In this document: positions 5,112 through 34,008 of the stretch, in pieces
How positions within the stretch are numbered: the first letter of the stretch is position 1
Layout of the letters: each line of letters begins with the position of its first letter
Assembly: GCA_965219955.1 (NCBI GenBank)
Contig: OZ244799.1
Location: 928,001-992,000, forward strand
Reading direction: 5' to 3'
Length of the DNA stretch: 64,000 nt
Origin: a bacterium
Lineage (GTDB): Bacteria > UBA8248
Program-made: the position numbers and the translations under genes
Notes under the pieces: generated by a model
Told to the model about the DNA's origin: nothing
Databases searched by the model: none
What the model saw: only the letters and a program-made list of their open reading frames with translations

Positions 5112-5526
5112 GGCTGTTGAAAAAGTTCCTTGGAGCGATTTTGGTTGAGGCAAGTTTTTGAAGTTCACTCCCCCTTGAGGGTCTGTTGAAAAAGCCTTGA
5201 TGAACGAGGGATGGCGAATTATGGCCGCGCTCGCCGCGGATGAAAATTTCAACCGTAGGGGCGGGCCTCCGTGCCCGCCCGTATCGGGAATGTCCATGCC
5301 CGTAAGAGGCCTCGGACAGGCACGGAGGCCTGTCCCTACTAAACCATCACGTCTGCGACCTCCGTAAACCGCCGACGCCTCTCTCCTCACCCTGAGTAGC
5401 CGCCGAAGGCGGCGTATCGAAGGGCGAGAGGGGGTCGAACGCCTCGCGCCGGGCGAGAGGGCATCCTTCGATACGCGGCTCCGCCGCTACTCAGGATGAG
5501 GCGGATAGGGGTTTTTCAACAGCCCC
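5112..5526. mobile_element. Composite MITE/REP cluster (two left TGTTGAAAAA ends, GTAG pair, CCTCA/GAAGG pair, right end)
   Basis: GGCTGTTGAAAAAG 5112; GGGTCTGTTGAAAAAGCC 5179; GTAG palindromes 5255-5280/5314-5339; B palindromes 5385-5424/5463-5501; GGGGTTTTTCAACAGCCCC 5508-5526. The reverse complement of ~5350-5526 closely matches 25657-25835. Confidence 0.75.
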
Positions 5527-5582
5527 GATAGGGAGGATTCGATCTTCACGGGGGCATGCGGTTTGCGGTTGCTTCCGGCGCC

Positions 5583-7205
5583 CTAGTGCCCGCCGCGGGC
5601 CTCGGCGGTGATGAGTTCCAGGATCTCCTGGCTGGTTATCGCGCCCACGAACTCGCCCGATTCGCGCTCCATCACCGGCAAGACCGTCAGGGAGTTTTCC
5701 GTCATCCGCTGCAGGGCGTCCTCCACGTGCTCGTCCGGCCATGTGTTCAGCTCGGTTTCCCGCGCGATCTTGCCGAGCGGGGTATCGGGCCACGAATGCC
5801 TGGGAAGATAGCGGAGCATCGCGAGCGACACGATGCCGACCAGCACGTCCCCCTCCGCCACCACGTAGTCCTGCTGGTGGGTCGCGATCCACTCCTCCGC
5901 GAACTCGCGCACCGTGAGCCCGGGACCCGGATAGCCGCGCGTGCGGTCGATGACGTCGCCCACGGTGATGTCTTCCAGGGCGAACCGGACAAGCGCGGGC
6001 GGCAGGGTCGGCGGCGGCGTGAACCGTCCGGAGGGCTTGGCGCGGCTCACCGCGAAGCTGATGACCGGCGGCGCGAAAAGGATGTAGGCCAGCATGATGA
6101 AAACGAACAGCGAGAAAACGGCCTGCCCGATGACCTCGTGCTCCAGGAGCACGAGCAGGACGGCGATCTCCGCCACGCCCTTGGCCATGAGTCCCGTCGA
6201 GAAGGCGAAAGGCGAATCGATCCGCGCCACCAGTGCGCCCAGAGCCGCGCCGGCGAACTTTCCGAGCAGGGGGACCACCACCAGCGCCGCAATGGTCAAC
6301 GCCGGCAACCCGGTGAACGAGAGGCTCAGGTGCAGTCCGGCCGAGGAGAAGAAAAGGGGCACGAAAAACCCGTCGGCGATGCTCTTCAAGCTCGGGACGA
6401 TCTCGCGCTGCACCTGATGGGGCAGCCTCGCCAGGGCGACGCCCAGGAGCAGGGCGCCGAGAGAGCCGTGCAGGCCGAGCCTTTCGGCGCACACGACCGA
6501 AACGAGCAGGATGCCCAGGATGATGCCGAAAGAAAGCTGGGGGACGCGCAGCAGACGCTCCAGATACACGATCAGCAGCGGAATGACCCGCCCCGCCAGT
6601 ACCCATGTCACCACGATGAAGGCGGCGATCTGCCCCAGCAGGAGGAGCACCCCCGTCCAGCTCAGGGAGTGGGCGTGCTCGCCGATGGTCATTCCCACCA
6701 TCAGCAGCACCAGCAACTCGGCGATGAGCGCGGTGGTGAACAGCTCGATCCCGATGGGTTCCCGCAGGCGGTCGGTGTCGATCAGCACCTTGGCGAGGAC
6801 GCCCAGACTCGTCAGCGCCAAAACACCCGCGAGAGCCAGCGAGCCGTTGAAATCGAGCCCGAGCCCGAAATCGTGGAACAGGTCGAAGGTGATCGCCAGA
6901 GACGCCATGATGGGAATGATGACCGAAATGACGGCAGCCACGAAGAACCGCCCGCTCAGGGCCGCCATGAACCCCGTGACGTCGATCTCGTCCAGGCCGA
7001 TGAGGAAGAAATAGAGGAAGATGCCGAGGGCCAGGAAGATTTGGATGTAGCCGTTGAGTTCGACGAGGCCCAGAACGGGGCCGAGAAGGACGCCCGTCGC
7101 CATGTACGCGACGATCGAGTTCAGCCGGAAACGCCGGAAAATGCCCTCGGCCAGCTTGGCGACGACAATCAGCAGGCCGATGGAGAGTAGCGCATCTTCA
7201 AGCAT
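5583..7205 (-). CDS. Cation:proton antiporter (CPA2/KefB-like) with C-terminal CBS pair, paralog 1
   Basis: About 13 hydrophobic segments (GVLLGP, FLIGLDEID, LALTSLGV) and a CBS-like C-terminus (VGIVS, LPVME..GAIT). ATG at 7205 preferred; the ORF extends to TTG 7250. Confidence 0.85.
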   Translation of the reverse strand: MLEDALLSIGLLIVVAKLAEGIFRRFRLNSIVAYMATGVLLGPVLGLVELNGYIQIFLALGIFLYFFLIGLDEIDVTGFMAALSGRFFVAAVISVIIPIMASLAITFDLFHDFGLGLDFNGSLALAGVLALTSLGVLAKVLIDTDRLREPIGIELFTTALIAELLVLLMVGMTIGEHAHSLSWTGVLLLLGQIAAFIVVTWVLAGRVIPLLIVYLERLLRVPQLSFGIILGILLVSVVCAERLGLHGSLGALLLGVALARLPHQVQREIVPSLKSIADGFFVPLFFSSAGLHLSLSFTGLPALTIAALVVVPLLGKFAGAALGALVARIDSPFAFSTGLMAKGVAEIAVLLVLLEHEVIGQAVFSLFVFIMLAYILFAPPVISFAVSRAKPSGRFTPPPTLPPALVRFALEDITVGDVIDRTRGYPGPGLTVREFAEEWIATHQQDYVVAEGDVLVGIVSLAMLRYLPRHSWPDTPLGKIARETELNTWPDEHVEDALQRMTENSLTVLPVMERESGEFVGAITSQEILELITAEARGGH

Positions 7206-7286
7206 GTCTTGTTCCGTGGTCGAGAGTGGTGTGGCTACGTAAAAAATCAAACATGTTGAACGATCGGTTCGAATCGAAGTTTATCC

Positions 7287-7316
7287 AATCTACGCCGTTT
7301 TTCAATAGCCGCGCAA
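7287..7316 (-). promoter_or_regulatory. Putative sigma70 promoter of antiporter paralog 1
   Basis: Minus strand TTGCGC-N18-TAGATT. Both hexamers are identical upstream of paralog 2 while the spacer has diverged. Confidence 0.55.
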
Positions 7317-7380
7317 GTTTTTTTCTCCCCGGCGGGGAGGAAAGACGTCCGAGCGAGGAGGCGAAAAAGCAAGGCGAAAA

Positions 7381-8112
7381 TGGATTCCGGCTTTCGCCGG
7401 AATGACGGCCAAAACCCGAAACCGGGCGGAGCCGTAGGGACGGATATATTCGCGCATCGCCAGGACGTAACCGTAGGGACAACCCTCCGTGGTTGTCCTT
7501 CGCCAGGACAGGCGCGGAGGCCTGTCCCTACGGTGAACAATTCGATGATCGGGGTTCCCTCCCTGAAGGGATTGTGGCAAAAGTCGTTCCTGATCGGAAT
7601 TGGCCACCACCGTCATTCCGGCGAAAGCCGGAATCCATTTTATGCTTTTTGCTTATTTTCGCATTTGATTCTGACTCTCGGAAAGGAACGCCGCGCCCGA
7701 AGCCCGAACGGGTGAAGCGGATATATATGGCGGCGTCCGTATTTTCCCGGTCGGGAGAGAGGACGGCTAAGCGAAAGACCAAAGACAAAGGCGAAAATGG
7801 ATTCCGGCTTTCGCCGGAATGACGAACAAAAGCGAAGGTCAATCCCAAGCGAAGCGAGACTTTTTCAACAGGCCCCTCAAGGGGGGAGGGATTCTTGCTC
7901 CCTCATCGGTTGCCCCAAACCCTCATCCTGAGTAGGCGCGCAAGCGCCGTATCGAAGGATGGAAGGCGCAAACTTCGCCCTCTCGCCCGGCGCGAGGCTT
8001 GCCCTTCGATACGCCGCCATCGGCGGCTACTCAGGGTGAGGAATGAGGCGTTGGCGGTTTGCGAGGGGGGGGTGGGTCAGGCTGTTTCAACAAACCCCTC
8101 GAGGCGGGAGTG
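7381..8112. repeat. Dense intergenic REP/MITE cluster
   Basis: CGTC-type palindromes at 7381-7407, 7611-7637, 7798-7824; GTAG pair 7473-7498/7506-7531; MITE-like unit 7568-7876; B pair 7921-7960/8002-8041; right end TTTCAACAAACCCC near 8085-8098. Confidence 0.8.
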
Positions 8113-8126
8113 ATTCTCCCGGCTCG

Positions 8127-9749
8127 CTAATGCGCGCCGCGGGCCTCGGCGGTCATGAGCTCCAGTATCTCCTGGCTGGAAATCGCGCCCACGAACGTGC
8201 GTGACTCCCGCTCGAGGACCGGCATCACCGTCAGAGAGTACTCCATCATCCGGTGCAGGGCGTTCTCCACGTGCTCGTCCGGCCAGGTGTTCGGTGTGTT
8301 CTCCCGCGCGATCTGGCCGATCGGGGTGTCGAACCAGGAGTCCTTGGGCAGGTAGCCGAGCATCGAGAGCGACACGATGCCGACCAGCGTGCCGTTTTCC
8401 GAGACCACGTAGTCGTGCTGATGGGGCACGATCCACTCGTCGGCGAATTTCCGCACCGAGAGTTCCGGGCCCGGATAGGCATGCGTCCGGTCGATGACGT
8501 CGCCGACGGTGATGTCGTCCAGGGCGAACCGGACAAGCGCGGGCGGCAGGGTCTCGGGCGGCGTGAACCGCCCGGAGGGCCTGGCGCGGCTCACGGCGAA
8601 ACCGATGAGCGGCGGCGAGAAAAGGATGTAGGTCAGCATGATGAGAACGAGCAGCGAGAATACGGGCCGCCCGATGACGTCGTGTTCGTGGAGCACCAGC
8701 AGAATGGCGATTTCGACGACGCCCTTGGCCATCAGCCCGGTCGCGATGGTGAAAGGCGCGTCGAGCCGCGCCACGAGCGCGCCCAGGGACGCCCCGGCGA
8801 ACTTCGCGACCAGCGGGACCACCATCAGGGCTGCGATGGTCAGCAGGGGCAACTCGGTGAACGAGAGGTCCAGATGCAGCCCCGCCGAAGTGAAGAAAAG
8901 GGGCACGAAAAACCCGTCGGCGATGCTCTTGAGGCTCGGGACTATCTCGCGCTGCACCTGATGCGGGAGCCTCGAGAGGGCGACGCCGAAGACGAGCGCT
9001 CCCAGAGAGCCGTGCAGGCCGAACTTTTCGGCGAACACGACCACGATGAGCAGAATGCCGAGGATCAGGCCGAACGAAAGATGGGGCACGCGCAGCAGGC
9101 GTTCCAGCAACTCGATCAGGCGCGGAATAACCCGGCCCGCCAGCACCCAGGTCACCACGATGAAGCCCGCGATCTGCCCCAGCAGGATGAGCACCCCCGT
9201 CCAGTTCAGGGCGTGGGTGAACTCGCCGATGGTCAACCCCACCATGAGCAGCAACAGCAATTCGGCGATGAGCGCGGTCGTGAACATCTCGATCCCGATG
9301 GGCTGCCGCAGGCGGTCGGTGTCGATCAGCACCTTGGCGAGGACGCCCAGGCTGGTCAGGGACAGGACGCCCGCGAGAGCCAGCGCACCGTCGAAGTCGA
9401 GCCGCAACCCGAAATCGTGAAGCAAGTCCAGGGTGATGACCAGGGAGGCCAGGAGGGGGATGATGACCGAGATGAGCGCGGCGACGAAGAATCGTCCGCG
9501 CAGGGCCGCCATGAATCCCGTGACGTCGATCTCGTCCAGACCGATGAGAAAGAAATAGAGGAAGATGCCGAGTCCCAGCAGGACGTATAGCTGCTCGCTG
9601 AGGTCGACGAACCCCAGAACGGGTCCGAGAAGGACGCCCGTCGCCATGTACGCGATGATCGAACTCAGCCGCAAACGCCGGAAAATGCCCTCGGCCAACT
9701 TGGCGACGACGATCAGCAGGCCGACAGAGAGTAACGCATTTTCAAGCAT
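8127..9749 (-). CDS. Cation:proton antiporter (CPA2/KefB-like) with C-terminal CBS pair, paralog 2
   Basis: Same length as, and colinear with, paralog 1, with long identical stretches. ATG at 9749 preferred; the ORF extends to TTG 9794. Confidence 0.85.
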   Translation of the reverse strand: MLENALLSVGLLIVVAKLAEGIFRRLRLSSIIAYMATGVLLGPVLGFVDLSEQLYVLLGLGIFLYFFLIGLDEIDVTGFMAALRGRFFVAALISVIIPLLASLVITLDLLHDFGLRLDFDGALALAGVLSLTSLGVLAKVLIDTDRLRQPIGIEMFTTALIAELLLLLMVGLTIGEFTHALNWTGVLILLGQIAGFIVVTWVLAGRVIPRLIELLERLLRVPHLSFGLILGILLIVVVFAEKFGLHGSLGALVFGVALSRLPHQVQREIVPSLKSIADGFFVPLFFTSAGLHLDLSFTELPLLTIAALMVVPLVAKFAGASLGALVARLDAPFTIATGLMAKGVVEIAILLVLHEHDVIGRPVFSLLVLIMLTYILFSPPLIGFAVSRARPSGRFTPPETLPPALVRFALDDITVGDVIDRTHAYPGPELSVRKFADEWIVPHQHDYVVSENGTLVGIVSLSMLGYLPKDSWFDTPIGQIARENTPNTWPDEHVENALHRMMEYSLTVMPVLERESRTFVGAISSQEILELMTAEARGAH

Positions 9750-9830
9750 GCTTTGGTCCGTGGTCGAGAGTGGTGCGCCGTACGCGAAAATCAAACATAT
9801 TACACGACCGTTTCCGATCGAGGTTCATCC

Positions 9831-11170: not shown

Positions 11171-11258
11171 CCCGGCCGTTGCGTGAAGGTGAAGGCATTT
11201 TGTTTTTCTTCGATGAAACGAATATAACGCCTGAAACGAAAGGCAAAAGCAAATTCCC

Positions 11259-16130: not shown

Positions 16131-16272
16131 GGTCAGGCGCGGCCTGAAGGGGGTTGCCTGAAAAGCCTTCCCGCAAACAGGTAATGAATTTCTCAATCGA
16201 CATAGGCTTATGAATTTACTCTCCCTCAAGGGGGTGTTGAAAAACCCCCTTGGGAGAGAAATCTCATAAAGG

Positions 16273-16414
16273 CAACCCCCCCTACCCCCCTTGTCAGGGG
16301 GGTAAAAAGAAACAAAACCCGCTTGCCAGGAAGGTAAGAAAAGGTGGCGCCCGCCGCCGGCAGAGGGGTTTTGCTTTTTCTTGCCCCCCTGACAAGGGGG
16401 GGTAGGGGGGGTTG
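16273..16414. repeat. C/G-rich inverted repeat pair (fourth palindrome family)
   Basis: CAACCCCCCCTACCCCCCTTGTCAGGGGGG at 16273-16302 and its inverted copy at 16384-16414 (one-base indel), just inside a GGGGGTGTTGAAAAACCCC end at 16230. Confidence 0.8.
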
Positions 16415-16474
16415 GTTTTCGAGTCGAGGGAGGGCCAGCGGGGAGGGAGCGATTTCTCGGCTTGGGATTTTGCT

Positions 16475-16501
16475 CGTCATTCCGGCGAAAGCCGGAATCC
16501 A
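16475..16501. repeat. CGTC-type REP, left member of the pair that brackets the two IS elements
   Basis: CGTCATTCCGGCGAAAGCCGGAATCCA; inverted partner at 19945-19971. Confidence 0.85.
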
Positions 16502-16561
16502 TTTTCAAGCAGAATGACAATTCTTCGGCTTTTTATCTCTCCGTCATTGGTGTGAACCTAA

Positions 16562-18296
16562 CCCGGATATTTCACCGACAAATGGCATGGGGCCTCTGAA
16601 TGTCGGATAATGTGAGTTGTCTCAATAACTTACACCCGTCCGACAGAGAGGCCCCATGGATACGCATTGTACACCGGAACAACTTCACTTTCACCCCCAC
16701 GGAAGACGCGAGGTCATCGCCCGATTCGACGGCGGACGGATCACGTCGGACGCCGGCGGGGTGCTGCTTCGCGAGACGGATCTCCGCCTGGGTCTGATGG
16801 CTCGTCTGGCGCGGTGTTTTCGTGATTGCCGCAAGCCCGGCAGCGTGGAGCACCCGGTGCGCTCGCTGGCGGCGCAGCGGGTGTACGCGCTGGCGCTGGG
16901 CTACGAGGACCTGAACGACCACGAGGATTTGCGCCGCGACAGGTTGCTGGCGCTGCTGGTGGGCAAGCGGGACCTGACGGGAGCCGGGCGGGTTCGCCTT
17001 CGGGACCGCGGCTCTCCGCTGGCCGCATCGAGTACGCTGAACCGCCTGGAGTTGGGCGGCGCCGAGGCGGCGACGGATCGCTACAAGCGCATCGCTGCGG
17101 ACTTCGAGGCGATGGACCGCCTGCTGGTGGACGTGTTCATGGAGTCTTACGCCGAACCGCCCGAAGAGATATGGCTGGACCTCGACGCCACGGACGACCC
17201 CCTGCACGGTCGCCAGGAGGGGCGCTTCTTCCACGGCTATTACGGCCGCTACTGTTATCTGCCGCTCTACGTCTTCTGCGGCGCGCATCTGCTGTGCGCG
17301 CGGCTGCGCCGCTCGAACGTCGACGCCTCGGCCGGCAGCGAGGAGGAGTTGGCGCGGATCGTGGCGCAGGTCCGCAGGCGCTGGCCGCGTACGCGGGTCG
17401 TGGTTCGCGGCGACTCGGGTTTTTGCCGCGAGCCGTTGATGCGCTGGTGCGAGGAGAACGGCGTCGGCTACGTGTTCGGCATGGCGCGCAACGCGCGGCT
17501 GGTGCGGGCGATTGGCCGGGACCTCTACCGGGCCGAGGTCGTCTGTCGCCGCACGGGTGAGCCGGCGCGCCGGTATCGCGACTTCCGCTATCGAACGCGC
17601 AAGAGCTGGTCCAGAACCCGCCGGGTGGTGGGCAAGGCGCAATACCTGCCCAGGGGGGCGAACCCGCGGTTCGTGGTCACCAATCTCCGCCCCCGGCGGG
17701 CCGGCGCCAGACGCCTCTACGAAGAACTCTACTGCGCCCGGGGAGAGATGGAGAACCGCATCAAGGAACAGCAACTCGGCCTGTTCGCCGACCGCACCAG
17801 CAGCGCCACCATGAGGGCCAATCAGTTGCGGCTCTACTTCGCCTCCTTCGCCTACGTCCTGATGCACGGACTCCGGCGCCTGGGGCTGGCGGGCACGACA
17901 TGCGCCAGGGCCCAGTGCGCAACGATCCGGCTGAAACTGCTCAAGATCGGCGCCCGCGTGAGGGTCAGCGTGCGCAAGGTCCGGCTGTCTATCTCCGAGG
18001 CCTGGCCCCATGCGGCGCTCTTCGAAAAGGTAGTGAACAACCTGCGTACGCACCCGCCCTGGCCGACGGCGGGGGAGAGTGACTGAGCGTAGAATCGGAG
18101 CGACATAGGTTGCCGCAGCGGGAAACCTGCGCCTGCGCGTCGGCCGGCACTCCCCGAAAGCCTTCGAAATCGACGAAAAAGCGCCGCTCGGGCGCCGTGC
18201 GTCATCGTATCGCGCCGACGAAGAAGGCCGCCTCCCGAATCAAGCCGTCCACGACTTCAAATCAGGCCGTTCCAAAGCCTCGGTGAAATATCCGGG
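16562..18296 (+). mobile_element. IS1380-family insertion sequence (1735 bp)
   Basis: Perfect 17-bp TIR CCCGGATATTTCACCGA (16562-16578 / 18280-18296) flanked by CTAA direct repeats (16558-16561, 18297-18300). Confidence 0.95.
16656..18086 (+). CDS. IS1380-family DDE transposase
   Basis: FDGGRITSDAG, GYEDLNDH, LDLDATDD, VRGDSGF, YCARGEMENRIKE. Confidence 0.95.
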   Translation: MDTHCTPEQLHFHPHGRREVIARFDGGRITSDAGGVLLRETDLRLGLMARLARCFRDCRKPGSVEHPVRSLAAQRVYALALGYEDLNDHEDLRRDRLLALLVGKRDLTGAGRVRLRDRGSPLAASSTLNRLELGGAEAATDRYKRIAADFEAMDRLLVDVFMESYAEPPEEIWLDLDATDDPLHGRQEGRFFHGYYGRYCYLPLYVFCGAHLLCARLRRSNVDASAGSEEELARIVAQVRRRWPRTRVVVRGDSGFCREPLMRWCEENGVGYVFGMARNARLVRAIGRDLYRAEVVCRRTGEPARRYRDFRYRTRKSWSRTRRVVGKAQYLPRGANPRFVVTNLRPRRAGARRLYEELYCARGEMENRIKEQQLGLFADRTSSATMRANQLRLYFASFAYVLMHGLRRLGLAGTTCARAQCATIRLKLLKIGARVRVSVRKVRLSISEAWPHAALFEKVVNNLRTHPPWPTAGESD

Positions 18297-18300
18297 CTAA

Positions 18301-19915
18301 CAGCCTGTCGGGCTTTGGCCTGCCAAGGAGTTCGAAGCACCAATCGTGGGAGTGATTTTCGGGGTTCTTCTCGGTAATCGATTCTTGTTGGCCGGCGATT
18401 CGGTGTCAGGAGCCATGATCGGCCCTCACAGGCCCGGTGGGAGTCATAGCGGCCGGCAACAGGCCACGGGACGAGGGCGTTTATCCTCCGATCACGCCGA
18501 CTTCAGGTTGTGCAGACGCTTGCAGTTATAAGCCAGCATCACCAGGACCCACTCGCCCTGCACCTTCTCGAGACCGCGCAAGAGGAACTGCCGGAAGCCC
18601 ATCGCCTGCTTGACGATGCCGAACACCGGCTCCACCGTCTGCCGCCGCAGGCGATAACGGGCGCGCTCTTCCGGCTTCGCCATCTTCGCGCGCATCGCCG
18701 CAATCCACTCCGCTCGAACTTCCGGACCTGGCCGGGAAGCCACCGGTGGCCGGAAGTCGTGCCGACGGCGCCCCCCTTCGGCTTGCGTGGCCACCAGAAC
18801 CTCGACGCCCCGTCTCTCGAGTTCTTCCACTTCGCTGCCCGTCGCGTAGCCGCTGTCCGCCAACACACGCGCCGGCGCGGCAACCGAAGGCGGAATCGCC
18901 TCCACGTCCGCCACCAGTTCCCCGCGGTCGCTCGCGTTGTTGCTCACACGCGCTCCCAGCACCAACTGGCTGCCTTCGGCATCCACCACCGCCTGCGCGT
19001 TGTACGCCTGGCGATACTCGTGACGCTTGCTCTTGCGCATCAAGGCGCTGTCCCCATCCGTCAGGTTGATCTGCCGCCCCTCTTCGGGCTTCTCCCGAGG
19101 GGGCTTGATGCGCGGACCCTTCCTCCGACCTGAACGGCGCTCCCGAGACGCCGCCTTGCGTTCATATTCCGCCCGACCCGCCTCGGCCGACCTCTTCGCG
19201 CGGCGCTCCAGTTCCGCGCACGCCGCATCCAGCTTCGACTTCAACTCCTCGCGACGCGCCAACTCCTCCGGCAGCGCCTGCGGATCCCCTACCTCCTGCG
19301 CATCTTCGCTCTCCGCACGCTCCAGCAACTCCTCGACCTCTCCGCGCAATTGAGAGCCCAACGCCTGCGCACGGTCATACCGGACGTTGTTGTGCTTGCT
19401 CGCGTTCGCGTCCACCTTCGTCCCGTCCACGCTCACCGTCCCGACCCGCAACAACTTCAACTCCTTCGCCAGCAGCAAAACCTGCTCGAACGTCTCCGCT
19501 ATCGCCTCGAAGTTATCGCGACGGAACGCGCAGATCGTGTCGTGGTCCGGGTGTGTGTTCGACGCCACGTATCGAACCCCGATATCCCGGTACGTCGCGC
19601 GCTCGATCCGGCGCGAACCGAATATCCCGTTCGCGTAGCAGTAAATCAGCAGCGCCAGCATCATCCGGGGATGGTACTGCGCTGAACCCGTGCCGCGCTC
19701 GTTCACGCGGAATGACCCCAGAGGCACCCGTTCCACCGCCTCCACTACGAAGTGCGCCAGATCGTCCTCCGGCAACCACTCCCGCATGTCCACAGGAAGA
19801 AGATACAACTGCGACTGATTACAATCTACAAACTTCGCCACCCCAATCCCCTCCCTTAAAAATACCTCGCGAGAACGACATATTATAAAAGGTAGGGCCT
19901 AAGTCCGACAGGCTG
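18301..19915 (-). mobile_element. IS1182-family insertion sequence (1615 bp)
   Basis: 18/20 TIR CAGCCTGTCGG(G/A)CTT(T/A)GGCC (18301-18320 / 19896-19915) flanked by CTAA (18297-18300, 19916-19919). Confidence 0.93.
18492..19841 (-). CDS. IS1182-family transposase
   Basis: YHPRMMLALLIYCY, SRRIE, PDHDTICAFR, VDGTK, TDGDS, ADSGY, RRQTVEPVFGIVK, YNCKRL. Confidence 0.95.
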   Translation of the reverse strand: MAKFVDCNQSQLYLLPVDMREWLPEDDLAHFVVEAVERVPLGSFRVNERGTGSAQYHPRMMLALLIYCYANGIFGSRRIERATYRDIGVRYVASNTHPDHDTICAFRRDNFEAIAETFEQVLLLAKELKLLRVGTVSVDGTKVDANASKHNNVRYDRAQALGSQLRGEVEELLERAESEDAQEVGDPQALPEELARREELKSKLDAACAELERRAKRSAEAGRAEYERKAASRERRSGRRKGPRIKPPREKPEEGRQINLTDGDSALMRKSKRHEYRQAYNAQAVVDAEGSQLVLGARVSNNASDRGELVADVEAIPPSVAAPARVLADSGYATGSEVEELERRGVEVLVATQAEGGRRRHDFRPPVASRPGPEVRAEWIAAMRAKMAKPEERARYRLRRQTVEPVFGIVKQAMGFRQFLLRGLEKVQGEWVLVMLAYNCKRLHNLKSA

Positions 19916-19944
19916 CTAACAGAAAAAAACAAAGGCAAAACAAA

Positions 19945-20274
19945 TGGATTCCGGCTTTCGCCGGAATGACGAACAAAACCGTATCTCCTCGTAGTGGGTC
20001 GTTCTTGTGAACGGGAAAAGCCGTAGTCAGGGACAGGCGAGGGGGGCCTGTCCGTCACGGTCGCTGTTCGAGGGTTTTGTAGGGGACGCATACATGCGTC
20101 CCGTGACTTTATGTTTTCCCGTTTGGCGTTGTGGACGCGATGCGGGCGGGAAAGTGGCCGACGAGCGTGGTTTTGTTCGTCCGCATGGGTCGCATGTCAG
20201 TAGCGCTCCCATGAAGATAGTCCTGGCTGGCTACATACGCCGAATAAGGAAATGAGGACTTTTCAACAACCCCC
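19945..20274. repeat. REP/MITE right part of the composite around the IS pair
   Basis: CGTC-type REP 19945-19971; GTAG palindrome 20079-20102; right end GACTTTTCAACAACCCCC 20257-20274. Confidence 0.7.
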
Positions 20275-24577: not shown

Positions 24578-25656
24578 AAAACGTCCGCGTTCATCTGGGA
24601 GAGCGCTCCTACACGATCAGGATCGGTGCGGACGCGCTCGGGGATATCGGAAAAGTCTCCCTGCGTCATTTCAGGGGCGCGAGGGCGCTCGTCGTGACGG
24701 ACGCGAACGTGGCGCCGCTCTATGCCGAAAAAACGCTCGATGCACTTGCGGCTGCGGGCGTTCAGGCGTCTTTGCTCAGGATTCCTGCGGGCGAGGCGAG
24801 CAAGTCGATGCGGCAGTTGTCCCGGATACTGGACAAGATGGCTTCCTTGAGGCTGGACAGGGGCTGCGGCGCCGTGGCCCTGGGCGGCGGCGTCGTGGGC
24901 GACATCGCCGGATTCGCGGCGGCCGTCTTCCTGAGAGGGGTTCCCTATGTCCAGGCGCCGACGACGCTCCTCGCCCAGGTGGACAGCGCGGTGGGCGGCA
25001 AGACGGCCATCGATCACAAACTCGGGAAAAACCTCGTGGGCGCGTTTCATCAGCCGATAGCGGTGGTCAGCGATACGTCGTCGCTGGGGACGCTGCCCGA
25101 GCGGGAGTTCAGGGCGGGGCTGGCCGAGGTGGTGAAGCACGCGGCGATTGCGGATGCCCGGCTTTTCGCCTTTTTGGAGAAGAACGAGGCGCCAATCCTC
25201 GAGCGCGACGAGGGCGTCATGGAGCGCATCGTCGCCACGAACTGCCGGATCAAGGCGCGAGTCGTCGAGCAGGACGAGCGCGAGGGGGGGTTAAGGCAGA
25301 TACTCAACTACGGCCACACCCTCGGACACGCGGTGGAGGCGCTGGCGGGCTACTCGTCCGAACTGCTCCACGGAGAGGCCGTCGCGATCGGCATGGCCGC
25401 GGCGAGCCGGATATCCTGCGCGATGGGGCGCTGCGCGCCGGGCGACGTGGATCGGCTGACCGCTCTTCTCGATCGTTTCGGCCTGCCCACGCGCATGGCG
25501 GAGCCTCCCAGGCTCGCGGTCCTGAAGCGGCTGCTCGCCAGCGACAAGAAAACGCGCCGGGGGAGCCCCCGGTTCGTCCTGATGCGGAAAATCGGCGCGG
25601 TGGAGCCGGGCATAGTAGTATCTCCCCGCTTGTGGCGGAACGCGCTCGCGGGTTAG
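24574..25656 (+). CDS. aroB: 3-dehydroquinate synthase
   Basis: GGGVVGD, PTTLLAQVDSAVGGKT, LNYGHTLGHA, LHGEAV. Confidence 0.97.
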   Translation: MKNVRVHLGERSYTIRIGADALGDIGKVSLRHFRGARALVVTDANVAPLYAEKTLDALAAAGVQASLLRIPAGEASKSMRQLSRILDKMASLRLDRGCGAVALGGGVVGDIAGFAAAVFLRGVPYVQAPTTLLAQVDSAVGGKTAIDHKLGKNLVGAFHQPIAVVSDTSSLGTLPEREFRAGLAEVVKHAAIADARLFAFLEKNEAPILERDEGVMERIVATNCRIKARVVEQDEREGGLRQILNYGHTLGHAVEALAGYSSELLHGEAVAIGMAAASRISCAMGRCAPGDVDRLTALLDRFGLPTRMAEPPRLAVLKRLLASDKKTRRGSPRFVLMRKIGAVEPGIVVSPRLWRNALAG

Positions 25657-25853
25657 GGGGTTGCTGAAAAAACCCCTCTCCGCCTCATCCTGAGTAGCGG
25701 CGGAGCCGCGTATCGAAGGATGCCCTCTCGCACGACGCGAGGCGTTCGGCTTTCCTCGCCCTTCGATACGCCGCCTTCGGCGGCTACTCAGGGTGAGGAA
25801 AGAGGGCGTTGGCGGTTTGCGGGGATCGCAGACGGGGCTTTTTCAACAACCCC
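25656..25853. mobile_element. Complete ~198-bp MITE (TIR - B palindrome pair - TIR)
   Basis: GGGGTTGCTGAAAAAACCCC ... GGGGCTTTTTCAACAACCCC; internal inverted pair 25683-25721/25759-25798; GTTA on both flanks (25652-25655, 25854-25857). Confidence 0.8.
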
Positions 25854-25965
25854 GTTAATCACGGGTTCAGCCGCTTTCGTTCGTTGACGCCATCGCCCGT
25901 GTTCTCTACCATCCTCCCCGGTTTCCATGTGGAAACGATGCGGCGCACCCTCTTTGAGTGAGCGA

Positions 25966-28321: not shown

Positions 28322-29446
28322 ATGCGCAAGAAGCTGTATTCCGTACTGACCATTCTCACAGCCGCCGTATTCCTGGGTTCGGCCGCGCACGCCGCGACGC
28401 TCAAGATAGGCGTGGCCGGGCCGCTCACGGGAGATCAGGCGGCGTTCGGCGAGATGCTGAAAAACGGCGCTACGCTCGCGGTGGAGGAGTGGAACGCCAG
28501 GGGCGGCGTGAAAGTCGGCAAAAAGAAGATGAAGGTGGACATCCTCTGGGGCGACGACCGTCACGACCCCAGGGAAGGGGTGTCGATCGCGCACAAGTTC
28601 GTGAACTCGGGCGCCGCCGGCATCGTCGGCCATTTCAACAGTTCGGTCTCCATTCCGGCGTCCACCGTGTATGCGGAGGCGGGCGTCGTCCAGATCACGC
28701 CGGCGTCCACGAACCCCAAGCTCACCGAGCAGGGCTTCTCGACGGTGTTCCGCGTCTGCGGTCGCGACGATCAGCAAGGAGAGGTGGCGGCCAACTACAT
28801 CGTGGACAAGTTGAAGCTGAAACGCATCGCCATCCTCCACGACAAGACCACCTACGGCCAGGGCTTGGCGGACGAGACGAAGCGGTTTCTGGAGAAAAGA
28901 GGCGTCAAGCCCGTCTTCTACAGCGGCGTCGTGCAGGGGGACAAGGACTACACGCCGGTTCTCACGGCCGCGAAACAGGAAAAGCCCGAACTCGTCTACT
29001 TCGGCGGCATCCACCCCGAGGCCATCCTTCTGGTGAAGCAGATGCGCGAGCGCCTCGGCATGAAGGCGCTCTTCATGAGCGGCGACGGCATCGTCACGGA
29101 AGAGTATTACAAGATCGCCGGCAAATCCGCCGAGGGCACCCTGATAACGTTCACGCCGGATCAGACGAAACTCGCAGCGGCGCAGAACGTCATCAAGAAA
29201 CACCGCAAGCGCTTCGGCAAGGAAGTGGGCGCCTACACCATTTACAGCTACGTGGCCATGAACATGATTCTGAACTCGATCCAGGCCACGGGCAGCACGA
29301 AGGGGGCCAAGCTGGCCACTCACCTGCGCAGCAAGGCCTGGAACACGTCGTTGGGCAAACTCCAGTTCAACAAGAAAGGAGACGTCCTGGAGAGCCCCTA
29401 CGTGCTCTGGCAGGTGAAGGGGTCGAAATTCGCAGAGATCAAATAG
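28322..29446 (+). CDS. livK: Branched-chain amino acid ABC transporter substrate-binding protein
   Basis: Signal peptide; KIGVAGPLTG, VGHFNS, STNPKLT, HDKTTYGQGLA. Confidence 0.92.
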   Translation: MRKKLYSVLTILTAAVFLGSAAHAATLKIGVAGPLTGDQAAFGEMLKNGATLAVEEWNARGGVKVGKKKMKVDILWGDDRHDPREGVSIAHKFVNSGAAGIVGHFNSSVSIPASTVYAEAGVVQITPASTNPKLTEQGFSTVFRVCGRDDQQGEVAANYIVDKLKLKRIAILHDKTTYGQGLADETKRFLEKRGVKPVFYSGVVQGDKDYTPVLTAAKQEKPELVYFGGIHPEAILLVKQMRERLGMKALFMSGDGIVTEEYYKIAGKSAEGTLITFTPDQTKLAAAQNVIKKHRKRFGKEVGAYTIYSYVAMNMILNSIQATGSTKGAKLATHLRSKAWNTSLGKLQFNKKGDVLESPYVLWQVKGSKFAEIK

Positions 29447-29472
29447 GGCGCGCATTGCCGCGTTGAATCATG

Positions 29473-30000
29473 AGAGGGGAGGCGAAAGGGGTTGTTGAAA
29501 AACCTCTTGTGAGTCGGGTCAAACGACTCCCTCCTTGAGGGGGCTGTTGAAAGAGCCCCTTATGCGTCCTCCAGAAACCGCCAACGTCTCTGTCCTCACC
29601 CTGAGTAGCCGCCGAAGGCGGCGTATCGAAGGGCGAGGGGCTCGCGCCGTGGCGAGAGCAAACGCTCATTCATCAATCGCGCTTGACCTTCGATACGCGG
29701 CTCCGCCGCTACTCAGGATGAGGAGTGTCGGGGAACGGCGGAGCCTGCCCGAGCGAAGTCGAGGGGCCGCTACTCAGGATGAAGCGGTGCGGTTTTGTTC
29801 GTCATTCCGGCGAAAGCCGGAATCCATTTGCGGGTGAGGGTGAATGAACCGCGGCATTTGATTCCCCGCCAGTGTGCGGGAGCCCTGACGAAAAGCAAAA
29901 GGCGAAAAATGGATTCCGGCTTTCGCCGGAATGACGGCGGTAGTCAGTTCCGAACGAGGAGGGGTTTTTCAACAACCCCGAAAGCCTCCTCTTTCCTTTT
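29473..30000 (+). terminator. Split rho-independent terminator/attenuator between livK and livH
   Basis: Removing the MITE and one GAAA leaves AGAGGGGAGGC-GAAA-GCCTCCTCTTT-CCTTTT: an 11-bp stem with two G-U pairs and a T-rich tail. Confidence 0.65.
29488..29979. mobile_element. 492-bp composite MITE inserted in the loop of a terminator hairpin
   Basis: Perfect 17-bp TIR GGGGTTGTTGAAAAACC (29488-29504 / 29963-29979); GAAA duplicated at 29484-29487 and 29980-29983. Contains an inner end (29539), a B pair (29594-29633/29687-29723) and a CGTC pair (29800-29826/29910-29936). Confidence 0.9.
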
Positions 30001-30027
30001 GCCTCATAACCATGTGAAGATTTCTCT

Positions 30028-30933
30028 ATGTTTGCGCAACAGCTGGTGAACGGGCTCGTCGTGGGGGCGGTGTACGCCCTGATCGCCCTGGGCTACACGC
30101 TCGTCTACGGGATTTTGCAGCTCATCAATTTCGCCCACGGCGAAATTTACATGATAGGCGCGTATGTGGGCATCGCCGTCCTGGCGGTGCTGGGGACGAT
30201 GGGCCTCACGCAGACGAGCCTGGCGCTGAGCATCGTTCTCGTCTTTCTCATCCCGATGATCTATTGCGCCGCGTACGGGATCACCCTGGAGCGCGTCGCC
30301 TACCGCCCGCTGCGGGGTGCGCCGAGGCTCTCCCCGCTCATCAGCGCGATCGGCATGAGCCTGTTTCTCCAGAACTACGTGCAGGTCGTGCAGGGAGCGC
30401 GCGACAAGGCGTTTCCCAACCTGCTCGAACTGGGGAGTTTCCAGCTCTTCGGCGCCTACGTGAACGGCCTGCAGATCTTCATCCTCATTCTGGCCCTGGG
30501 CCTCATGGCCGCTCTCCAGTTGTTCATCAAGAAGACGAAGCTCGGCAAGGCCATGCGCGCCACCGCGCAGGACAGGACGATGGCCTCGCTCGTCGGGGTG
30601 AACGTGAACCGGGTGATCGCGGTCACGTTCGCCATCGGCTCCGTGCTGGCCGCCGTGGCCGGCGTGATGGTGGGCATGTACTACGGAATCGTGAACCACC
30701 ACATCGGCTTCGTCGCGGGCATGAAGGCGTTCACCGCGGCCGTCCTGGGCGGTATCGGCAACGTGACGGGCGCGTTCCTGGGCGGCTTTCTGCTGGCGCT
30801 TCTGGAGAGTTTCTGGGCGGGGTACGTCTCCGCGATCTACAAGGACGTGTTCGCGTTCATGGTGCTGGTCGTCGTACTCATCTTCCGGCCCCAGGGCATC
30901 CTGGGCGGCTCCGGCGAGGCGGACAGAACATGA
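30028..30933 (+). CDS. livH: Branched-chain amino acid ABC transporter permease
   Basis: YALIALGYTLVYG..INFAHGE, KAFTAAVLGGIG, RPQGILG. Confidence 0.93.
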   Translation: MFAQQLVNGLVVGAVYALIALGYTLVYGILQLINFAHGEIYMIGAYVGIAVLAVLGTMGLTQTSLALSIVLVFLIPMIYCAAYGITLERVAYRPLRGAPRLSPLISAIGMSLFLQNYVQVVQGARDKAFPNLLELGSFQLFGAYVNGLQIFILILALGLMAALQLFIKKTKLGKAMRATAQDRTMASLVGVNVNRVIAVTFAIGSVLAAVAGVMVGMYYGIVNHHIGFVAGMKAFTAAVLGGIGNVTGAFLGGFLLALLESFWAGYVSAIYKDVFAFMVLVVVLIFRPQGILGGSGEADRT

Positions 30934-32114
30934 GCGCATACGCGAGGGTCCCGCTCATCGGCCTTTGGTTCGCCTTCCTGGCGTTGCCTCTTGCGGGATG
31001 GAAGAGGAGCCTCTGGATTGGGCTGGGCTGCGCCCTGGTTGTCCTGGTCGTGAGCCTCGCGCGGGCGAGCGTGCAGTCGGGCTTGCTGGCGGGGCCCGCT
31101 GCCCGGGTGAAGGAGAAGTTCGTATCCGCCTGGGGCTTCATCGAGGAGAAATCCTACGACAAGCGATATTTCAGCCTGTTCCTGCTTCTCATCATCGCGC
31201 TTCCCTGGACGCTCGATCGCTATTCCACCGACGTGCTCGTCATCACCGGCATCTACATCATGCTCGCACTGGGGCTGAACGTCGTGGTCGGCTTCGCCGG
31301 TCTCCTGGACCTGGGCTACGTGGCCTTCTACGCCGTGGGGGCGTATTCCTACGCGCTTCTGAACAGTTGGTACGGGCTCTCCTTCTGGCCGGCCCTGGGG
31401 GTGGGCGTGGCCAGTTCCGCCCTGTTCGGGATCATTCTGGGGATCCCCGTGCTGAGGCTCCGGGGCGATTATCTCGCCATCGTCACGCTCGGCTTCGGCG
31501 AGATCATCCGCCTCGTTCTCAACAACTGGGACAACGTGACCCAGGGTCCGAACGGCATCCTGGGCATCGGACGCCCCTATCTGGGCGAGATGCGCCTCTA
31601 CAAGCCCATGCACTTCTACTACCTCGTGGTCGTCTTGTGCATCGTGACCATCTTCATCGTGAACCGGCTCGACAGGAGCCGCCTGGGCCGCGCCTGGGCG
31701 GCCATGCGCGAGGACGAGACGGTGGCCGAGTGCATGGGCATCAACATCGTCTACACGAAGCTCTCCGCCTTCGCCTTCGGCGCCGCCTGGGCCGGGTTCG
31801 GAGGCGTCGTCTTCGCCGCGAAGCAGACGTTCATCTCGCCGGAGAGTTTTACGTTTTTTGAATCCGTCATCATCCTGTGCATGGTGGTGCTGGGCGGCAT
31901 GGCGAGCATTCCGGGCGTCATGCTCGGCGCGTTCATCCTCACCGTGCTGCCCGAGGCGCTCAGGGAACTCACGCTTTTCCGGCCCATGCTCCTGGGCGGC
32001 GCCATGGTGCTCATGATGGTGCTGAAGCCCCAGGGACTGCTGCAGGCCAGGGGACAGCGCCATCATCTTGAACGCGGCGGTGAACCAGAAAGCCGGGTGG
32101 GGGCGGGGCGATGA
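30930..32114 (+). CDS. livM: Branched-chain amino acid ABC transporter permease
   Basis: LALGLNVVVGFAGLLDLGY, LRLRGDYLAIVTLGFGE. Confidence 0.93.
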   Translation: MSAYARVPLIGLWFAFLALPLAGWKRSLWIGLGCALVVLVVSLARASVQSGLLAGPAARVKEKFVSAWGFIEEKSYDKRYFSLFLLLIIALPWTLDRYSTDVLVITGIYIMLALGLNVVVGFAGLLDLGYVAFYAVGAYSYALLNSWYGLSFWPALGVGVASSALFGIILGIPVLRLRGDYLAIVTLGFGEIIRLVLNNWDNVTQGPNGILGIGRPYLGEMRLYKPMHFYYLVVVLCIVTIFIVNRLDRSRLGRAWAAMREDETVAECMGINIVYTKLSAFAFGAAWAGFGGVVFAAKQTFISPESFTFFESVIILCMVVLGGMASIPGVMLGAFILTVLPEALRELTLFRPMLLGGAMVLMMVLKPQGLLQARGQRHHLERGGEPESRVGAGR

Positions 32115-32887
32115 ACGCAAAAGTGCGTCTTTTGCTGCTCAAAAATCTCACGCGGCGTTTCGGCGGCGTGGTGGCGCTCGATTCTCTGGACCTGAACGTG
32201 CACGAGGGCGAGGTGTTAGGCCTCATCGGCCCGAACGGCGCCGGCAAGACGACGGCCTTCAACGTGGTGACGGGCCTCTACGCGCCCACCGGGGGCGACG
32301 TCATATTCAAGGGCAAAAACCTCGTGGGGCTCAAGCCCAGCGCCGTCACGAGCCGTGGCATCGCGCGCACGTTCCAGAACATCCGCCTGTTCCGGGGGAT
32401 GACGGTGCTGGAAAACGTCCTCGTCGGACGCCACTGCAAGATGCGCACCGGCCCTGTCGGCGCGATTTTCAGGCTCCCCGGAATGGTGGCCGAGGAGCGT
32501 CAGGCGGTGGCCGATGCCATGGAACTGCTCGAGTTCACGGGCATCGGCGCCTACGCCTCGGGCATGGCGGAGACGCTCTCCTACGGGGATCAGAGAAGGC
32601 TCGAGATCGCCCGCGCCCTCGCGAGCGAGCCCAGCCTCTTGCTGCTCGACGAGCCCGCCGCCGGCATGAACCCGCGCGAGAAGGGCGTGTTGAACGAGTT
32701 GATCCTGGCGATCCGCGATCGCGGCGTCACCATCTTGCTGATTGAACACGACATGAAGGTGGTCATGGGCATCTCGGATCGCGTGGTCGTTCTCGATCAC
32801 GGGGAGAAGATTGCGGACGGAACCCCCGCCGAGGTGCGGCGCGACCCCAAGGTGCTGGAAGCCTATCTGGGGACTTCCGATGCTTGA
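32111..32887 (+). CDS. livG: Branched-chain amino acid ABC transporter ATP-binding protein
   Basis: GPNGAGKTT, ARTFQN, LDEPAAG, IEHDM. Confidence 0.93.
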   Translation: MNAKVRLLLLKNLTRRFGGVVALDSLDLNVHEGEVLGLIGPNGAGKTTAFNVVTGLYAPTGGDVIFKGKNLVGLKPSAVTSRGIARTFQNIRLFRGMTVLENVLVGRHCKMRTGPVGAIFRLPGMVAEERQAVADAMELLEFTGIGAYASGMAETLSYGDQRRLEIARALASEPSLLLLDEPAAGMNPREKGVLNELILAIRDRGVTILLIEHDMKVVMGISDRVVVLDHGEKIADGTPAEVRRDPKVLEAYLGTSDA

Positions 32888-33584
32888 ACTAAGGGATGTT
32901 CATTTCCACTACGGCCACATCCATGCGCTCCAGGGCGTGTCGCTGGAGGTGCGCTCGGGGCAGGTGGTCTGTCTCATCGGCAGCAACGGGGCGGGGAAAT
33001 CCTCCACCCTCATGGCGATCAGCGGCGTCAACGCCGTCTCCCGGGGCGAGATACTCCTGGAGGGCGAGGCCATCCACGCCCGGGAGCCGGACGACATCGT
33101 GAGGCGCGGCATCTGCCAGGTGCCCGAGGGCAGGCGCATCTTCCCGCACCTGACCGTGCTCGAAAACCTGGAGATGGGCGCTTTTTTGAGGAACGACGCC
33201 GGGGGCGTGAGAGAAGACCTCGACTACGTCTGCTCCCTGTTTCCGGTGCTGCACGAGCGGCGCGCCCAGAGGGGCGGCACGCTCTCGGGCGGGGAGCAGC
33301 AGATGCTGGCCATCGCGCGCGCCCTGATGTCGCGGCCCAGGCTCCTCCTGCTCGATGAACCCTCTCTCGGCCTCGCGCCCCGGATCATCGAGACCATCTT
33401 CGAGGTTCTGGCGCGGATTCGCGACGAGGGGACGGGCATTTTTCTCGTCGAGCAGAACGCGCACCTGGCGCTCAATTTCTCGGACTGGGCCTACGTGATG
33501 GAGACGGGGCGCATCGTCATGGGCGATGAACCCGGCGTCCTGCGCGATTCGCCCGCCGTCCGCGAAGCCTACCTGGGCGAATAG
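32880..33584 (+). CDS. livF: Branched-chain amino acid ABC transporter ATP-binding protein
   Basis: GSNGAGKS, VPEGR, LSGGEQQM, LDEPSLGLAP. Confidence 0.93.
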   Translation: MLELRDVHFHYGHIHALQGVSLEVRSGQVVCLIGSNGAGKSSTLMAISGVNAVSRGEILLEGEAIHAREPDDIVRRGICQVPEGRRIFPHLTVLENLEMGAFLRNDAGGVREDLDYVCSLFPVLHERRAQRGGTLSGGEQQMLAIARALMSRPRLLLLDEPSLGLAPRIIETIFEVLARIRDEGTGIFLVEQNAHLALNFSDWAYVMETGRIVMGDEPGVLRDSPAVREAYLGE

Positions 33585-33608
33585 GGAGGCTTTTCCGATC
33601 GCGCTTCC

Positions 33609-34008
33609 GGGGTTTGCTGAGAAAAATCCTGATTTCGTGATTCGATGTATCGAACCGACCGGAGAGGCGGGTTCGTAGGGGCGGCCCTGTGTGGCCGCCC
33701 AGCCCCCTGTGGTTGTCCCGCGCAGAACAGGGCACCGGACAGGCTCTTCCATTGCAGGGTGCCAAGCAAGCACTTCCCGCTCGAGAGGGTTGTTGAAAAA
33801 CCCCCGTCTTCGACCCCTGCAAACCCCCAACGCCTCTTTCCTCACCCTGAGTAGCCGCCGAAGGCGGCGTATCGAAGGGCGAGGGGAGTCGAACGCCTCG
33901 CGCCGGGGCGTGAGGACATCCTTCGATACGCGGCTTCGCCGCTACTCAGGATGAGGCGGTCGGGGAGGCCCTGCGCACCGAATCACGAAGTCAGGGCCTT
34001 TCAGCAGC
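33609..34008. mobile_element. Nested composite MITE/REP cluster
   Basis: Outer inverted repeat CCTGA(T/C)TTCGTGATTCG (33628-33644 / 33979-33995) next to degenerate GCTGA..AAA ends; GTAG palindrome 33675-33700; inner end GAGGGTTGTTGAAAAACCCC 33785-33804; B pair 33840-33879/33918-33956. Confidence 0.75.

Follow-up and report, generated by a model that had tools for sequence, protein, structure and literature searches.

Repeat-filled spacers with shared ends

The window, a stretch of 64,000 nucleotides from a bacterial genome (contig OZ244799.1, positions 928,001 to 992,000), carries a series of repeat-filled spacers whose elements, miniature inverted-repeat transposable elements (MITEs) and composites of them, share one end motif and enclose different palindromes as cargo. 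The genome, here called G000, is a single contig of 4,283,615 bp with 60.9% G+C. The core of the motif, TGTTGAAAAA, or its complement occurs nine times in the window, in every case within 5115-33800, against 0.04 occurrences expected from dinucleotide shuffles, none of 100 of which reached nine. Genome-wide, there are 648 exact copies in 4.28 Mb, where a rough base-composition estimate predicts about two. This core belongs to a terminal inverted repeat, GGGGyTGTTGAAAAAG, in fuller form GGGGyTGTTGAAAAAG(y)CC, which extends to about 25 nt, and about 60% of the genomic copies have a C run and a 5-nt spacer immediately outside the longer motif.

Ends in the window were scored with a position weight matrix (PWM) built from the genome-wide end copies, those of at least 20 bits being called strong. 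All six regions for which an earlier note on this DNA had claimed a common end motif contain such PWM ends, with degenerate copies at 7568 on the left and at the two outer borders of 33609-34008 (Table 1). The shared ends thus hold up, and the motif itself is better written in the fuller form given above. Reading the six spacers showed the quoted palindromes A, B, C and E to be present as described: A is CGTC-tagged, B reads CCTCAyCCTGAGTAG...GTATCGAAGG, C comprises GTAG-tagged hairpins of the repetitive extragenic palindrome (REP) kind and E is a C-rich/G-rich hairpin pair. Also borne out were the simple forms, ends with B and ends with A, and the chimera at 29489-29979, in which a B part is joined to an A part and the right sub-terminal arm is of the arm03 type found at 7575-7615. 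What could not be upheld was the description of 16230-20274 as a plain intergenic region, because it holds an IS1380-family insertion sequence (IS) and a second IS of the IS1182 family.

Table 1. End copies, repeat elements and insertion sequences of the window (+ and - give the direction of ends; aa, amino acids)
Feature	Position	Strand	Content
Strong ends (13, PWM)			5110+, 5179+, 5508-, 7857-, 8079-, 16230+, 20255-, 25657+, 25835-, 29488+, 29540+, 29961-, 33786+
Weak or degenerate ends			7568+ (12.4 bits), 33610+ (9.4 bits), 34113- (9.3 bits)
Composite locus	5110-5526		End(+) 5110-5128, F-type arm closing with cactccccc-TTGAG, end(+) 5179-5197, GTAG-REP doublet ~5256-5341, B doublet ~5383-5500, end(-) 5508-5526
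A-type MITE	7568-7875		Degenerate end(+) 7568-7586, arm03, end(-) 7857-7875
B-type doublet	7913-8097		arm01 and degenerate end(-) 8079-8097; left end absent
Compound locus	16230-20273		End(+) 16230-16248, E inverted pair ~16275-16415, GTAG REPs, end(-) 20255-20273
IS1380-family IS, outside the MITE family	16558-18300	+	476-aa transposase 16656-18086 (NF033539, 403 bits)
Second, different IS1182-family IS	18297-19919	-	449-aa transposase 18492-19841 (NF033551, 327 bits)
Simple B-type MITE	25657-25853		Between aroB and aroQ; flanks GTTAG (25652-25656) and GTTAA (25854-25858)
491-bp composite	29489-29979		End(+), short arm with hairpin and TTGAG, end(+) 29540-29558, B doublet, A pair, arm03, end(-)
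Decayed compound locus	33610-34131		Degenerate end(+) with G-type arm, GTAG REPs, end(+) 33786-33804 with B doublet

Several of these loci are composite. The ends at 5110 and 5179 run in the same direction 69 bp apart and have an F-type outer arm, as do 18 of the 62 tandem end pairs of the genome. The A-type MITE contains an inverted pair of CGTC-tagged A palindromes (~7611-7638 and ~7797-7824), folds into a single long hairpin (-134 kcal/mol, z -7.1 versus mononucleotide shuffles) and is flanked by TGAAG and TCAAG within the C-rich/G-rich hairpin of an older element's arm07. The 491-bp composite is bounded by a 5-bp duplication, GAAAG, at 29484-29488 and 29980-29984, and in the decayed locus further degenerate ends lie at ~33996 and ~34113. 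Between the outer ends of the compound locus, A palindromes at ~16475 and ~19945 bracket the two unrelated ISs; it is not one simple element, its outer flanks (CTCAA and CGGTT) being different, and the spacer spans 33 bp to ~5 kb across relatives.

A partner transposase and insertion into hairpin loops

Genome-wide pairing was analysed among 843 relaxed end hits, a strict pair being defined as two consecutive, inward-facing ends less than 1 kb apart; the PWM estimate for the whole genome is about 1100 ends. There are 236 such inward-facing pairs against 38 outward-facing ones, their lengths cluster at 140-300 bp, and the elements mostly measure 140-400 bp. According to the gene calls, 617 of the 648 exact motif copies are intergenic, with convergent, divergent and tandem spacers represented roughly as spacer length predicts, and 488 of the 617 are directed from the nearest gene into the spacer (269+219 versus 67+62), whichever way the gene runs. 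Since the ends point into the spacer irrespective of gene direction throughout the genome, the motif is not a gene-3'-end signal or terminator. Tn3-type transposons have GGGG ends and a 5-bp duplication, and a Tn3-family origin was considered for this reason; it was rejected, there being no match to PF01526 in G000 and the partner being an IS1182-family IS. In integron attC sites, the inverse core RYYYAAC precedes the core GTTRRRY at a distance of 57-141 bp. The GTTGAAA and TTTCAAC cores of the ends suggested such sites, and these too were rejected because the motif order is reversed, with 236 pairs reading TGTTGAAAAA...TTTTTCAACA and 38 the opposite.

The partner was found among the longer end pairs with a perfect duplication, which include three 1506-bp units with one 481-aa open reading frame (ORF) each; a fourth copy was added by BLAST. 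All four copies (1516-1521 bp by BLAST) lie outside the window, and their ORFs are full length and 96-100% identical at the amino acid level. The 481-aa transposase contains the Pfam domains DUF772, DDE_Tnp_1_6 and DDE_Tnp_1 and reaches 349.9 bits with the NCBIfam model IS1182 (NF033551, cut-off 270). Its ends are the MITE ends, and the 5-bp duplication is found with both the IS copies and the MITEs, in agreement with the earlier proposal of a non-autonomous DDE-type element, for which an autonomous IS1182/IS5-type transposase was to be sought; such a partner, of the IS1182 family, is present here in four intact copies with GGGsyTGTTGAAAAA ends. Proteins 75-95% identical to the transposase are encoded at 55 loci of relatives, and both ends (GGGsCTGTTGAAAAACCCCTGGTTTTG and complement) are present at 51 of these. 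The 5-bp duplications of these ISs lie mostly in hairpin loops and are mostly TTGAG, CTCAA, TTGTC and GACAA between C and G runs, with one ATGAT in plain DNA. An IS on a Sinorhizobium plasmid, whose transposase is 56% identical, is bounded by the ends GGGGCTGTTGAAGAAG...CTTCTTCAACAGCCCC and flanked by the duplication TACGT; as it shares ends and duplication length, both features belong to an IS1182 sub-clade. Judged by these sequence features, the 481-aa transposase would mobilise the MITEs in trans. In a genome of another family of the same class (G020:C1:2627160-2628688), a single pair of inward-facing ends at a distance of 1.5 kb is accompanied by hardly any further ends; the pair is probably one IS copy and hints at horizontal transfer.

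The length of the target duplication is well defined. An exact 5-nt duplication outside the GGGG ends is present at 41 of the 236 pairs, and lengths of 3, 4, 6, 7 and 8 nt give 2, 6, 3, 0 and 0 pairs; with 1-nt slack the number rises to 59, compared with 8.45 for shuffled partners. Only a length of five works, and the 4-bp duplication expected by the earlier note has to be corrected. The commonest duplications, again TTGAG, CTCAA, TTGTC and GACAA, are the loops of C6-N5-G6 hairpins in E and F elements, the F element reading cactCCCCCC-TTGAG-GGGGGGagtg. When the 6 nt preceding the duplication were compared with the 6 nt following it in the 84 elements with perfect duplication, five or more positions proved complementary in 20, as against 40 of 5000 random sites. 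Fifteen of the 84 sit inside an outer pair, and at position 751269 a B element lies in an E hairpin, which confirms the matryoshka-like nesting suggested before. We also observed a recurrent hairpin, CAAACTC-TCCCTCATCGGTC-GAGTTTG and variants, that is itself another dispersed repeat and is reused as an insertion site (G000 positions 889698, 197501 and 2030476; duplications TCATC and TGATC).

Empty sites, which the earlier note had asked for, were found in relatives. The 29489-29979 element is missing in seven of nine relatives' loci, and each empty site retains a single GAAAG, reading GGGGAGGC-GAAAG-CCTCCCC-TTCTTTTTT right after a solute-binding-protein gene. This is a hairpin with a 12-bp stem followed by a T run (-24.9 kcal/mol), which can also be written GGGGAGGC-GAAAG-GCCTCCCC, and the G000 element occupies its loop between two copies of GAAAG. 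A single duplication thus encloses the B and A cargos of this composite, which came in together or at any rate are now united. The 25657-25853 site is empty in four relatives (G012, G008, G004 and G006) and the block 33618-34054 is missing as a whole in two (G008 and G010), flank identity between species with and without copies being 90-97%. Contigs from four public sequencing runs (X1, X2, X3 and X15) connect unique DNA with the elements at 25657, 25853, 29489 and 29979, so that the junctions are not peculiar to this assembly. Between 24800 and 30500 of the window the contigs of all four runs break inside the MITEs, where word depth is at least 100-fold above that of the flanks, and such breaks explain the fragmented assemblies of this genus. 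Most public runs holding this DNA are labelled as sponge, marine or coral metagenomes, going by the labels only.

The two ISs within the compound locus are of other kinds. The IS1380-family IS has 11 genome copies at 100% identity, this one included, and must have been active very recently; it adjoins the second IS, with CTAAC at three junctions. The latter has five copies at 100% identity, again counting this one, its ends differ from the MITE ends, and its transposase is 34% identical over 124 aa to that of the MITE partner. Apart from the repeats, the window contains tandem paralogous genes for a 555-aa Na+/H+ exchanger with CBS domain (5583-7250 and 8127-9794, both on the minus strand) separated by a repeat-filled spacer; the alignment blocks of G026 skip one copy.

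Palindrome cargo, its turnover and possible explanations

To type the sub-terminal arms, the 843 ends were clustered by the 40 nt that adjoin each of them on the inside, which yielded about 40 arm types with at least four copies, two of them being the partner IS's own ends. The cargo falls into discrete subfamilies, namely B, GTAG-REP doublets, A, E and F. Arm pairs that recur at unlinked loci include B (arms 0+1; 22 copies, about 184 bp), 2+6 (12 copies, 181 bp), 2+16 (7 copies), 7+13 (6 copies), 7+11 and 6+7 (5 copies each) and F (arms 4+10; 4 copies, basic form 104 bp). Mixed combinations are numerous, arm 2 occurring with 6, 16, 24, 13, 17, 3 and 12, and arm 7 with 13, 11, 6, 15, 25, 21 and 4. 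Mean pairwise identity within subfamilies is 0.855-0.92, and the closest pairs reach 0.95-0.995. Subfamilies keep constant end-to-cargo junctions at many unlinked loci while flanks and duplications differ, so that, as the earlier note proposed, the cargo moves with the ends. The predicted enrichment of REP pairs inside end pairs was likewise found genome-wide: strict pairs make up 7.4% of the intergenic bases yet hold 21-44% of the intergenic REP copies, a 3- to 6-fold excess (A 90 of 229, B 152 of 347, GGACAGGC hairpin 121 of 277, E 17 of 81). There are 62 end pairs in which both ends run the same way at a distance of less than 100 bp. Their outer arms belong to F or an F-like type in 20 cases, to E or an E-like type in 8, to G in 6 and to other types in 28; B, C and A never occupy this position, though they account for 317 of the 843 arms overall.

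The C cargo is an inverted doublet of GTAG-tagged hairpins with the GTAG heads pointing outward. Of 256 GTAGGGACAGGC heads, 142 have an end in the correct orientation no more than 100 nt away. Doublets of ~58 bp also stand alone in unique DNA, where 19 plus-strand heads are separated by more than 600 nt from the nearest end. G000 has no match to PF01797 (Y1 transposase) and no REP-associated tyrosine transposase (RAYT), and a tblastn search of this genome with the RAYT-like protein of a relative, G012, matched only the REP-encoded residues 90-135. Weak to moderate RAYT-like matches exist in 11 of the 23 genomes of the genus. A RAYT flanked by the cargo REPs, for which the earlier note had suggested a search, is thus lacking in G000 and present in G012, where a 198-aa RAYT-like ORF (L071 1453-2049, minus strand) is flanked by GTAG REPs of the cargo kind. 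In this ORF a GTAG REP array is inserted in frame at residues ~90-135, a REPtron whose gene hosts its own REP. Ends number 34-472 in 16 of the 22 other species of the genus, are absent from six and number 0-3 outside the genus. The GGACAGGC-N6-GCCTGTCC hairpin follows suit: G000 has 290 copies, each of the 16 other species with ends has 8-158, and the six species without ends have 0-1. B and A are nearly absent from the five end-free genomes examined. Across the genus, the copy number of GTAG REPs follows the IS1182 ends and not the presence of RAYT. The earlier note had held that the element captured REPs. Their presence inside the ends is established, and because doublets stand free in unique DNA and RAYT genes of relatives are flanked by the same REP kind, they would have been captured by the MITEs rather than have arisen within them.

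For the analysis of turnover, 390 kb of G000 (636,898-1,027,448) were compared with the collinear 400 kb on contig 6 of the closest relative, G011, at a flank identity of ~95-97%. The interiors of the 25 strict pairs in this span are aligned in 3 cases, partially aligned in 3 and not aligned in 19. Read from the gaps, the latter comprise 4 sites empty in G011, including locus 751269 with its E hairpin intact, 9 sites with different end-bounded cargo, usually E, and 6 complex ones. At 6 of 11 gap loci both species share odd end variants (GGACTTGTTG, CGGCTGTTG, TGTTGGAAAA, TTTTTCAAAAACCCC, GGGGTGTTG, ...AAAAAGACCC) around unrelated interiors, and the outer ends are therefore probably orthologous. 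The aroB/aroQ site, with shared flanks GTTAG/GGGG...CCCC/GTTAA, has four cargos in four species: B in G000, E and half an F in G011, a 110-bp element in G002, and F and A in G003. Locus 894362 contains an E element in G011, G012 and G002 and none in G003, G005 and G022. G000 has kept the E left end (…TGAAAAAGACCC) and the right half of the hairpin (GATAA-GGGAGTAGGGG), and between these remnants stands a C-type MITE whose right end abuts the loop GATAA. By its sequence, this locus reads as an insertion into the loop of a resident E element followed by deletion between the two left ends. Another counterpart differs in size: the 183-bp B MITE at 883624 of G000 corresponds to 1.9 kb of G011 (contig 6, 247515-249453) with one inward-facing end pair, possibly the IS itself in the same position.

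We consider it highly probable that these loci represent an IS1182-family IS together with a large MITE family that shares its ends, inserts into hairpin loops, carries palindromes as cargo and turns over by nesting and deletion. The shared ends would be the terminal inverted repeats of the IS, bounding also the non-autonomous MITEs moved in trans. The transposase would insert with a 5-bp duplication and favour the loops of GC-rich stem-loops, including terminator-like hairpins and the C6-N5-G6 hairpins borne by the E and F subfamilies themselves. Interiors would consist of palindrome pairs, among them GTAG-REP doublets of the relatives' RAYT kind, the CGTC-tagged A and the B hairpin pair, and each combination of end, arm and cargo would amplify as a unit. 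E and F elements would serve as landing pads in whose hairpin loops newcomers nest, and later deletion between directly repeated ends would strip the host interior, so that site and outer end stay while the cargo changes. Established from the sequences are the ends and their pairing, the 5-bp duplication, the partner, the empty sites, the loop preference, the amplification of units, the rapid turnover and one nest-and-delete locus. The interpretation of the earlier note is largely right, except that its element which recombines its cargo is better described as nesting into resident hairpins with deletion between direct ends, seen at 894362 and presumed elsewhere. More tentatively, and with somewhat less than even confidence, we suggest that the IS1182-type DDE transposase took over the propagation of REP doublets after RAYT was lost, and that landing pads and deletion make cassette sites whose cargo turns over in less time than the flanking genes need to diverge by a few percent.

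Several points weigh against this explanation. Only 41-59 of the 236 pairs retain a perfect duplication, and a second round of in-silico excision revealed 0 further perfect-duplication elements, so that clean two-level nesting is rare or quickly blurred. The genes of G000 were called with a home-made dicodon model (3510 genes, 80% coding), and the classes of replaced loci were assigned by reading gaps; some of these sites (for instance 742250 and 889713) are themselves hairpins open to independent insertion. None of the public-run contigs joins across 29489-29979 or 25657-25853, and contigs cannot show the absence of an empty allele. The link between transposase and MITEs is drawn from shared ends, duplication length and co-distribution among related, non-independent species; as the species are kin, the joint distribution of ends and REPs counts as few events, and the six end-free species may form one clade and so amount to about one event. 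Finally, 73 of 256, 59 of 259 and 58 of 223 REP heads have no end within 400 nt; the 73 are GTAGGGACAGGC heads, with unique flanks in 41 cases and MITE arms as flanks in 22. The end-free heads with unique flanks imply that some of the REPs move, or once moved, independently of these ends.

Cargo could instead be exchanged by homologous recombination or gene conversion between MITE copies through the ~20-25-nt ends or the REP cores, for example after breakage of a long palindrome. Conversion would yield in a single step what 6 of the 11 replaced loci show, an odd end variant common to both species around a wholly different interior, and exchange would also suit the wide reassortment of arms round a common REP core in the GTAG-REP elements and the identical flanks of the four aroB/aroQ cargos. 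At locus 894362, however, the one locus with outgroups, half of the host hairpin is kept and the new end abuts the loop, as produced by insertion and one-sided deletion and not by conversion, and the restriction of tandem-end host arms to E, F and G, with none of B, C or A among the 62, fits target choice and not symmetric recombination. In addition, ends of 20-25 nt are short for RecA-dependent exchange, as is textbook knowledge. On balance we regard exchange as rather unlikely and infer that nesting and deletion underlie most cargo swaps; for clean swaps, gene conversion through the ends is still plausible.

It is improbable that the palindromes simply piled up in permissive spacers, the REPs arriving by a route of their own rather than as cargo. 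The free-standing GTAG doublets and the 41 heads with unique flanks would suit such a history, as would the RAYT-like genes of relatives with the same REP kind and the clustering of REPs in spacers described in the consulted part of Di Nocera 2013 (PMC3733652). Against it, constant junctions between end and cargo recur within subfamilies at unlinked loci with differing duplications, the 491-bp B and A composite is a single insertion relative to seven of nine relatives' loci with one 5-bp duplication, and REP motifs are 3- to 6-fold enriched inside pairs; moreover, G000 has the most GGACAGGC hairpins (290) without a RAYT. We attach hardly any weight to the idea that the motif is a host signal, such as part of a terminator, a promoter element, an uptake sequence or a protein site, under selection at spacer edges. 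Its copies are indeed overwhelmingly intergenic (617 of 648) and often, as in the window, within tens of bases of gene ends, and the elements fold into strong hairpins, but their orientation is set by the spacer edge and not by gene direction, they are present or absent between species with flanks 90-97% identical, and six species of the genus have none. The same ends bound the transposase gene at 51 of 55 loci, 5-bp duplications exist, and an Rfam scan of window positions 4900-34300 matched no family.

The IS1182-based system bears on two wider questions. REP and REPIN populations are thought, in the parts of the literature consulted, to depend on a single-copy, vertically inherited RAYT, whereas here REP doublets ride inside ends recognised by an unrelated DDE enzyme and reach their peak copy number (290) without RAYT, which makes the system a natural case for asking what keeps REPs alive. 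With a defined 5-nt loop target and many natural variants, it also offers a test bed for structure-directed insertion by IS1182-family transposases. As insertions lie in terminator-like hairpins and between operon-like genes (aroB/aroQ), turnover may rewire transcript ends.

Comparison with known systems

In the literature searched, which did not cover subscription journals and supplements, we found no description of REP doublets inside IS1182 MITEs. The closest relatives are the IS1182 family and its staphylococcal member IS1272, with which the partner shares a transposase above the NCBIfam IS1182 cut-off and the targeting of stem-loops. In the available parts of PMC4923244 and PMC5678879, IS1272/TnSha1 is reported to choose a stem-loop or terminator in the DNA as its target rather than a particular sequence, and both, citing Siguier et al. 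2015, state that some members of the family target palindromic sequences. The same extracts have IS1272 deleting all or part of the stem-loop without duplication, whereas the element described here inserts into the loop and duplicates 5 bp, as in pathway (c) of the PMC5678879 model.

MITEs with an IS partner are represented by the ISMac2-related elements of Methanosarcina acetivorans, for which the consulted part of PMC3852290 gives 160-169 bp, 7-14 copies, inverted repeats of 25-26 and direct repeats of 0-4. Like these, the elements here are short, non-coding, multicopy and bounded by the inverted repeats of their partner. They differ in being far more numerous (236 strict pairs), in having dozens of arm types and several unrelated palindromic cargos, and in targeting themselves.

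The background on REPINs and RAYT, which are IS200/IS605-like Y1 transposases, is taken from portions of PMC3116915, PMC3337134 and PMC3733652. The C cargo resembles REPINs in its GTAG-tagged outward doublets, which also occur free-standing and flank a RAYT-like ORF in G012. It differs in that G000 is without RAYT, abundance tracks the IS1182 ends and 142 of 256 GTAGGGACAGGC heads sit near those ends.

Mosaics of short repeats are familiar from other bacteria as well. The bacterial interspersed mosaic elements (BIMEs) of Escherichia coli are REP/PU mosaics with other short motifs and have neither transposon ends nor duplications, and the Correia or NEMIS elements of Neisseria are MITEs with terminal inverted repeats and duplications and a single body, with, to our knowledge, no known partner in the genome. 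Both are named in the background section of PMC3733652. The elements of G000 are likewise mosaic spacer repeats built of palindromic units and linker motifs, and they differ in having their partner present and an interchangeable body. IS1182 MITEs and REP doublets are each already known kinds, and it is their combination that constitutes the system described here. What distinguishes it is its scale, the hairpin targeting that duplicates the loop, a REP cargo without RAYT, and self-targeting landing pads with cassette-like turnover.

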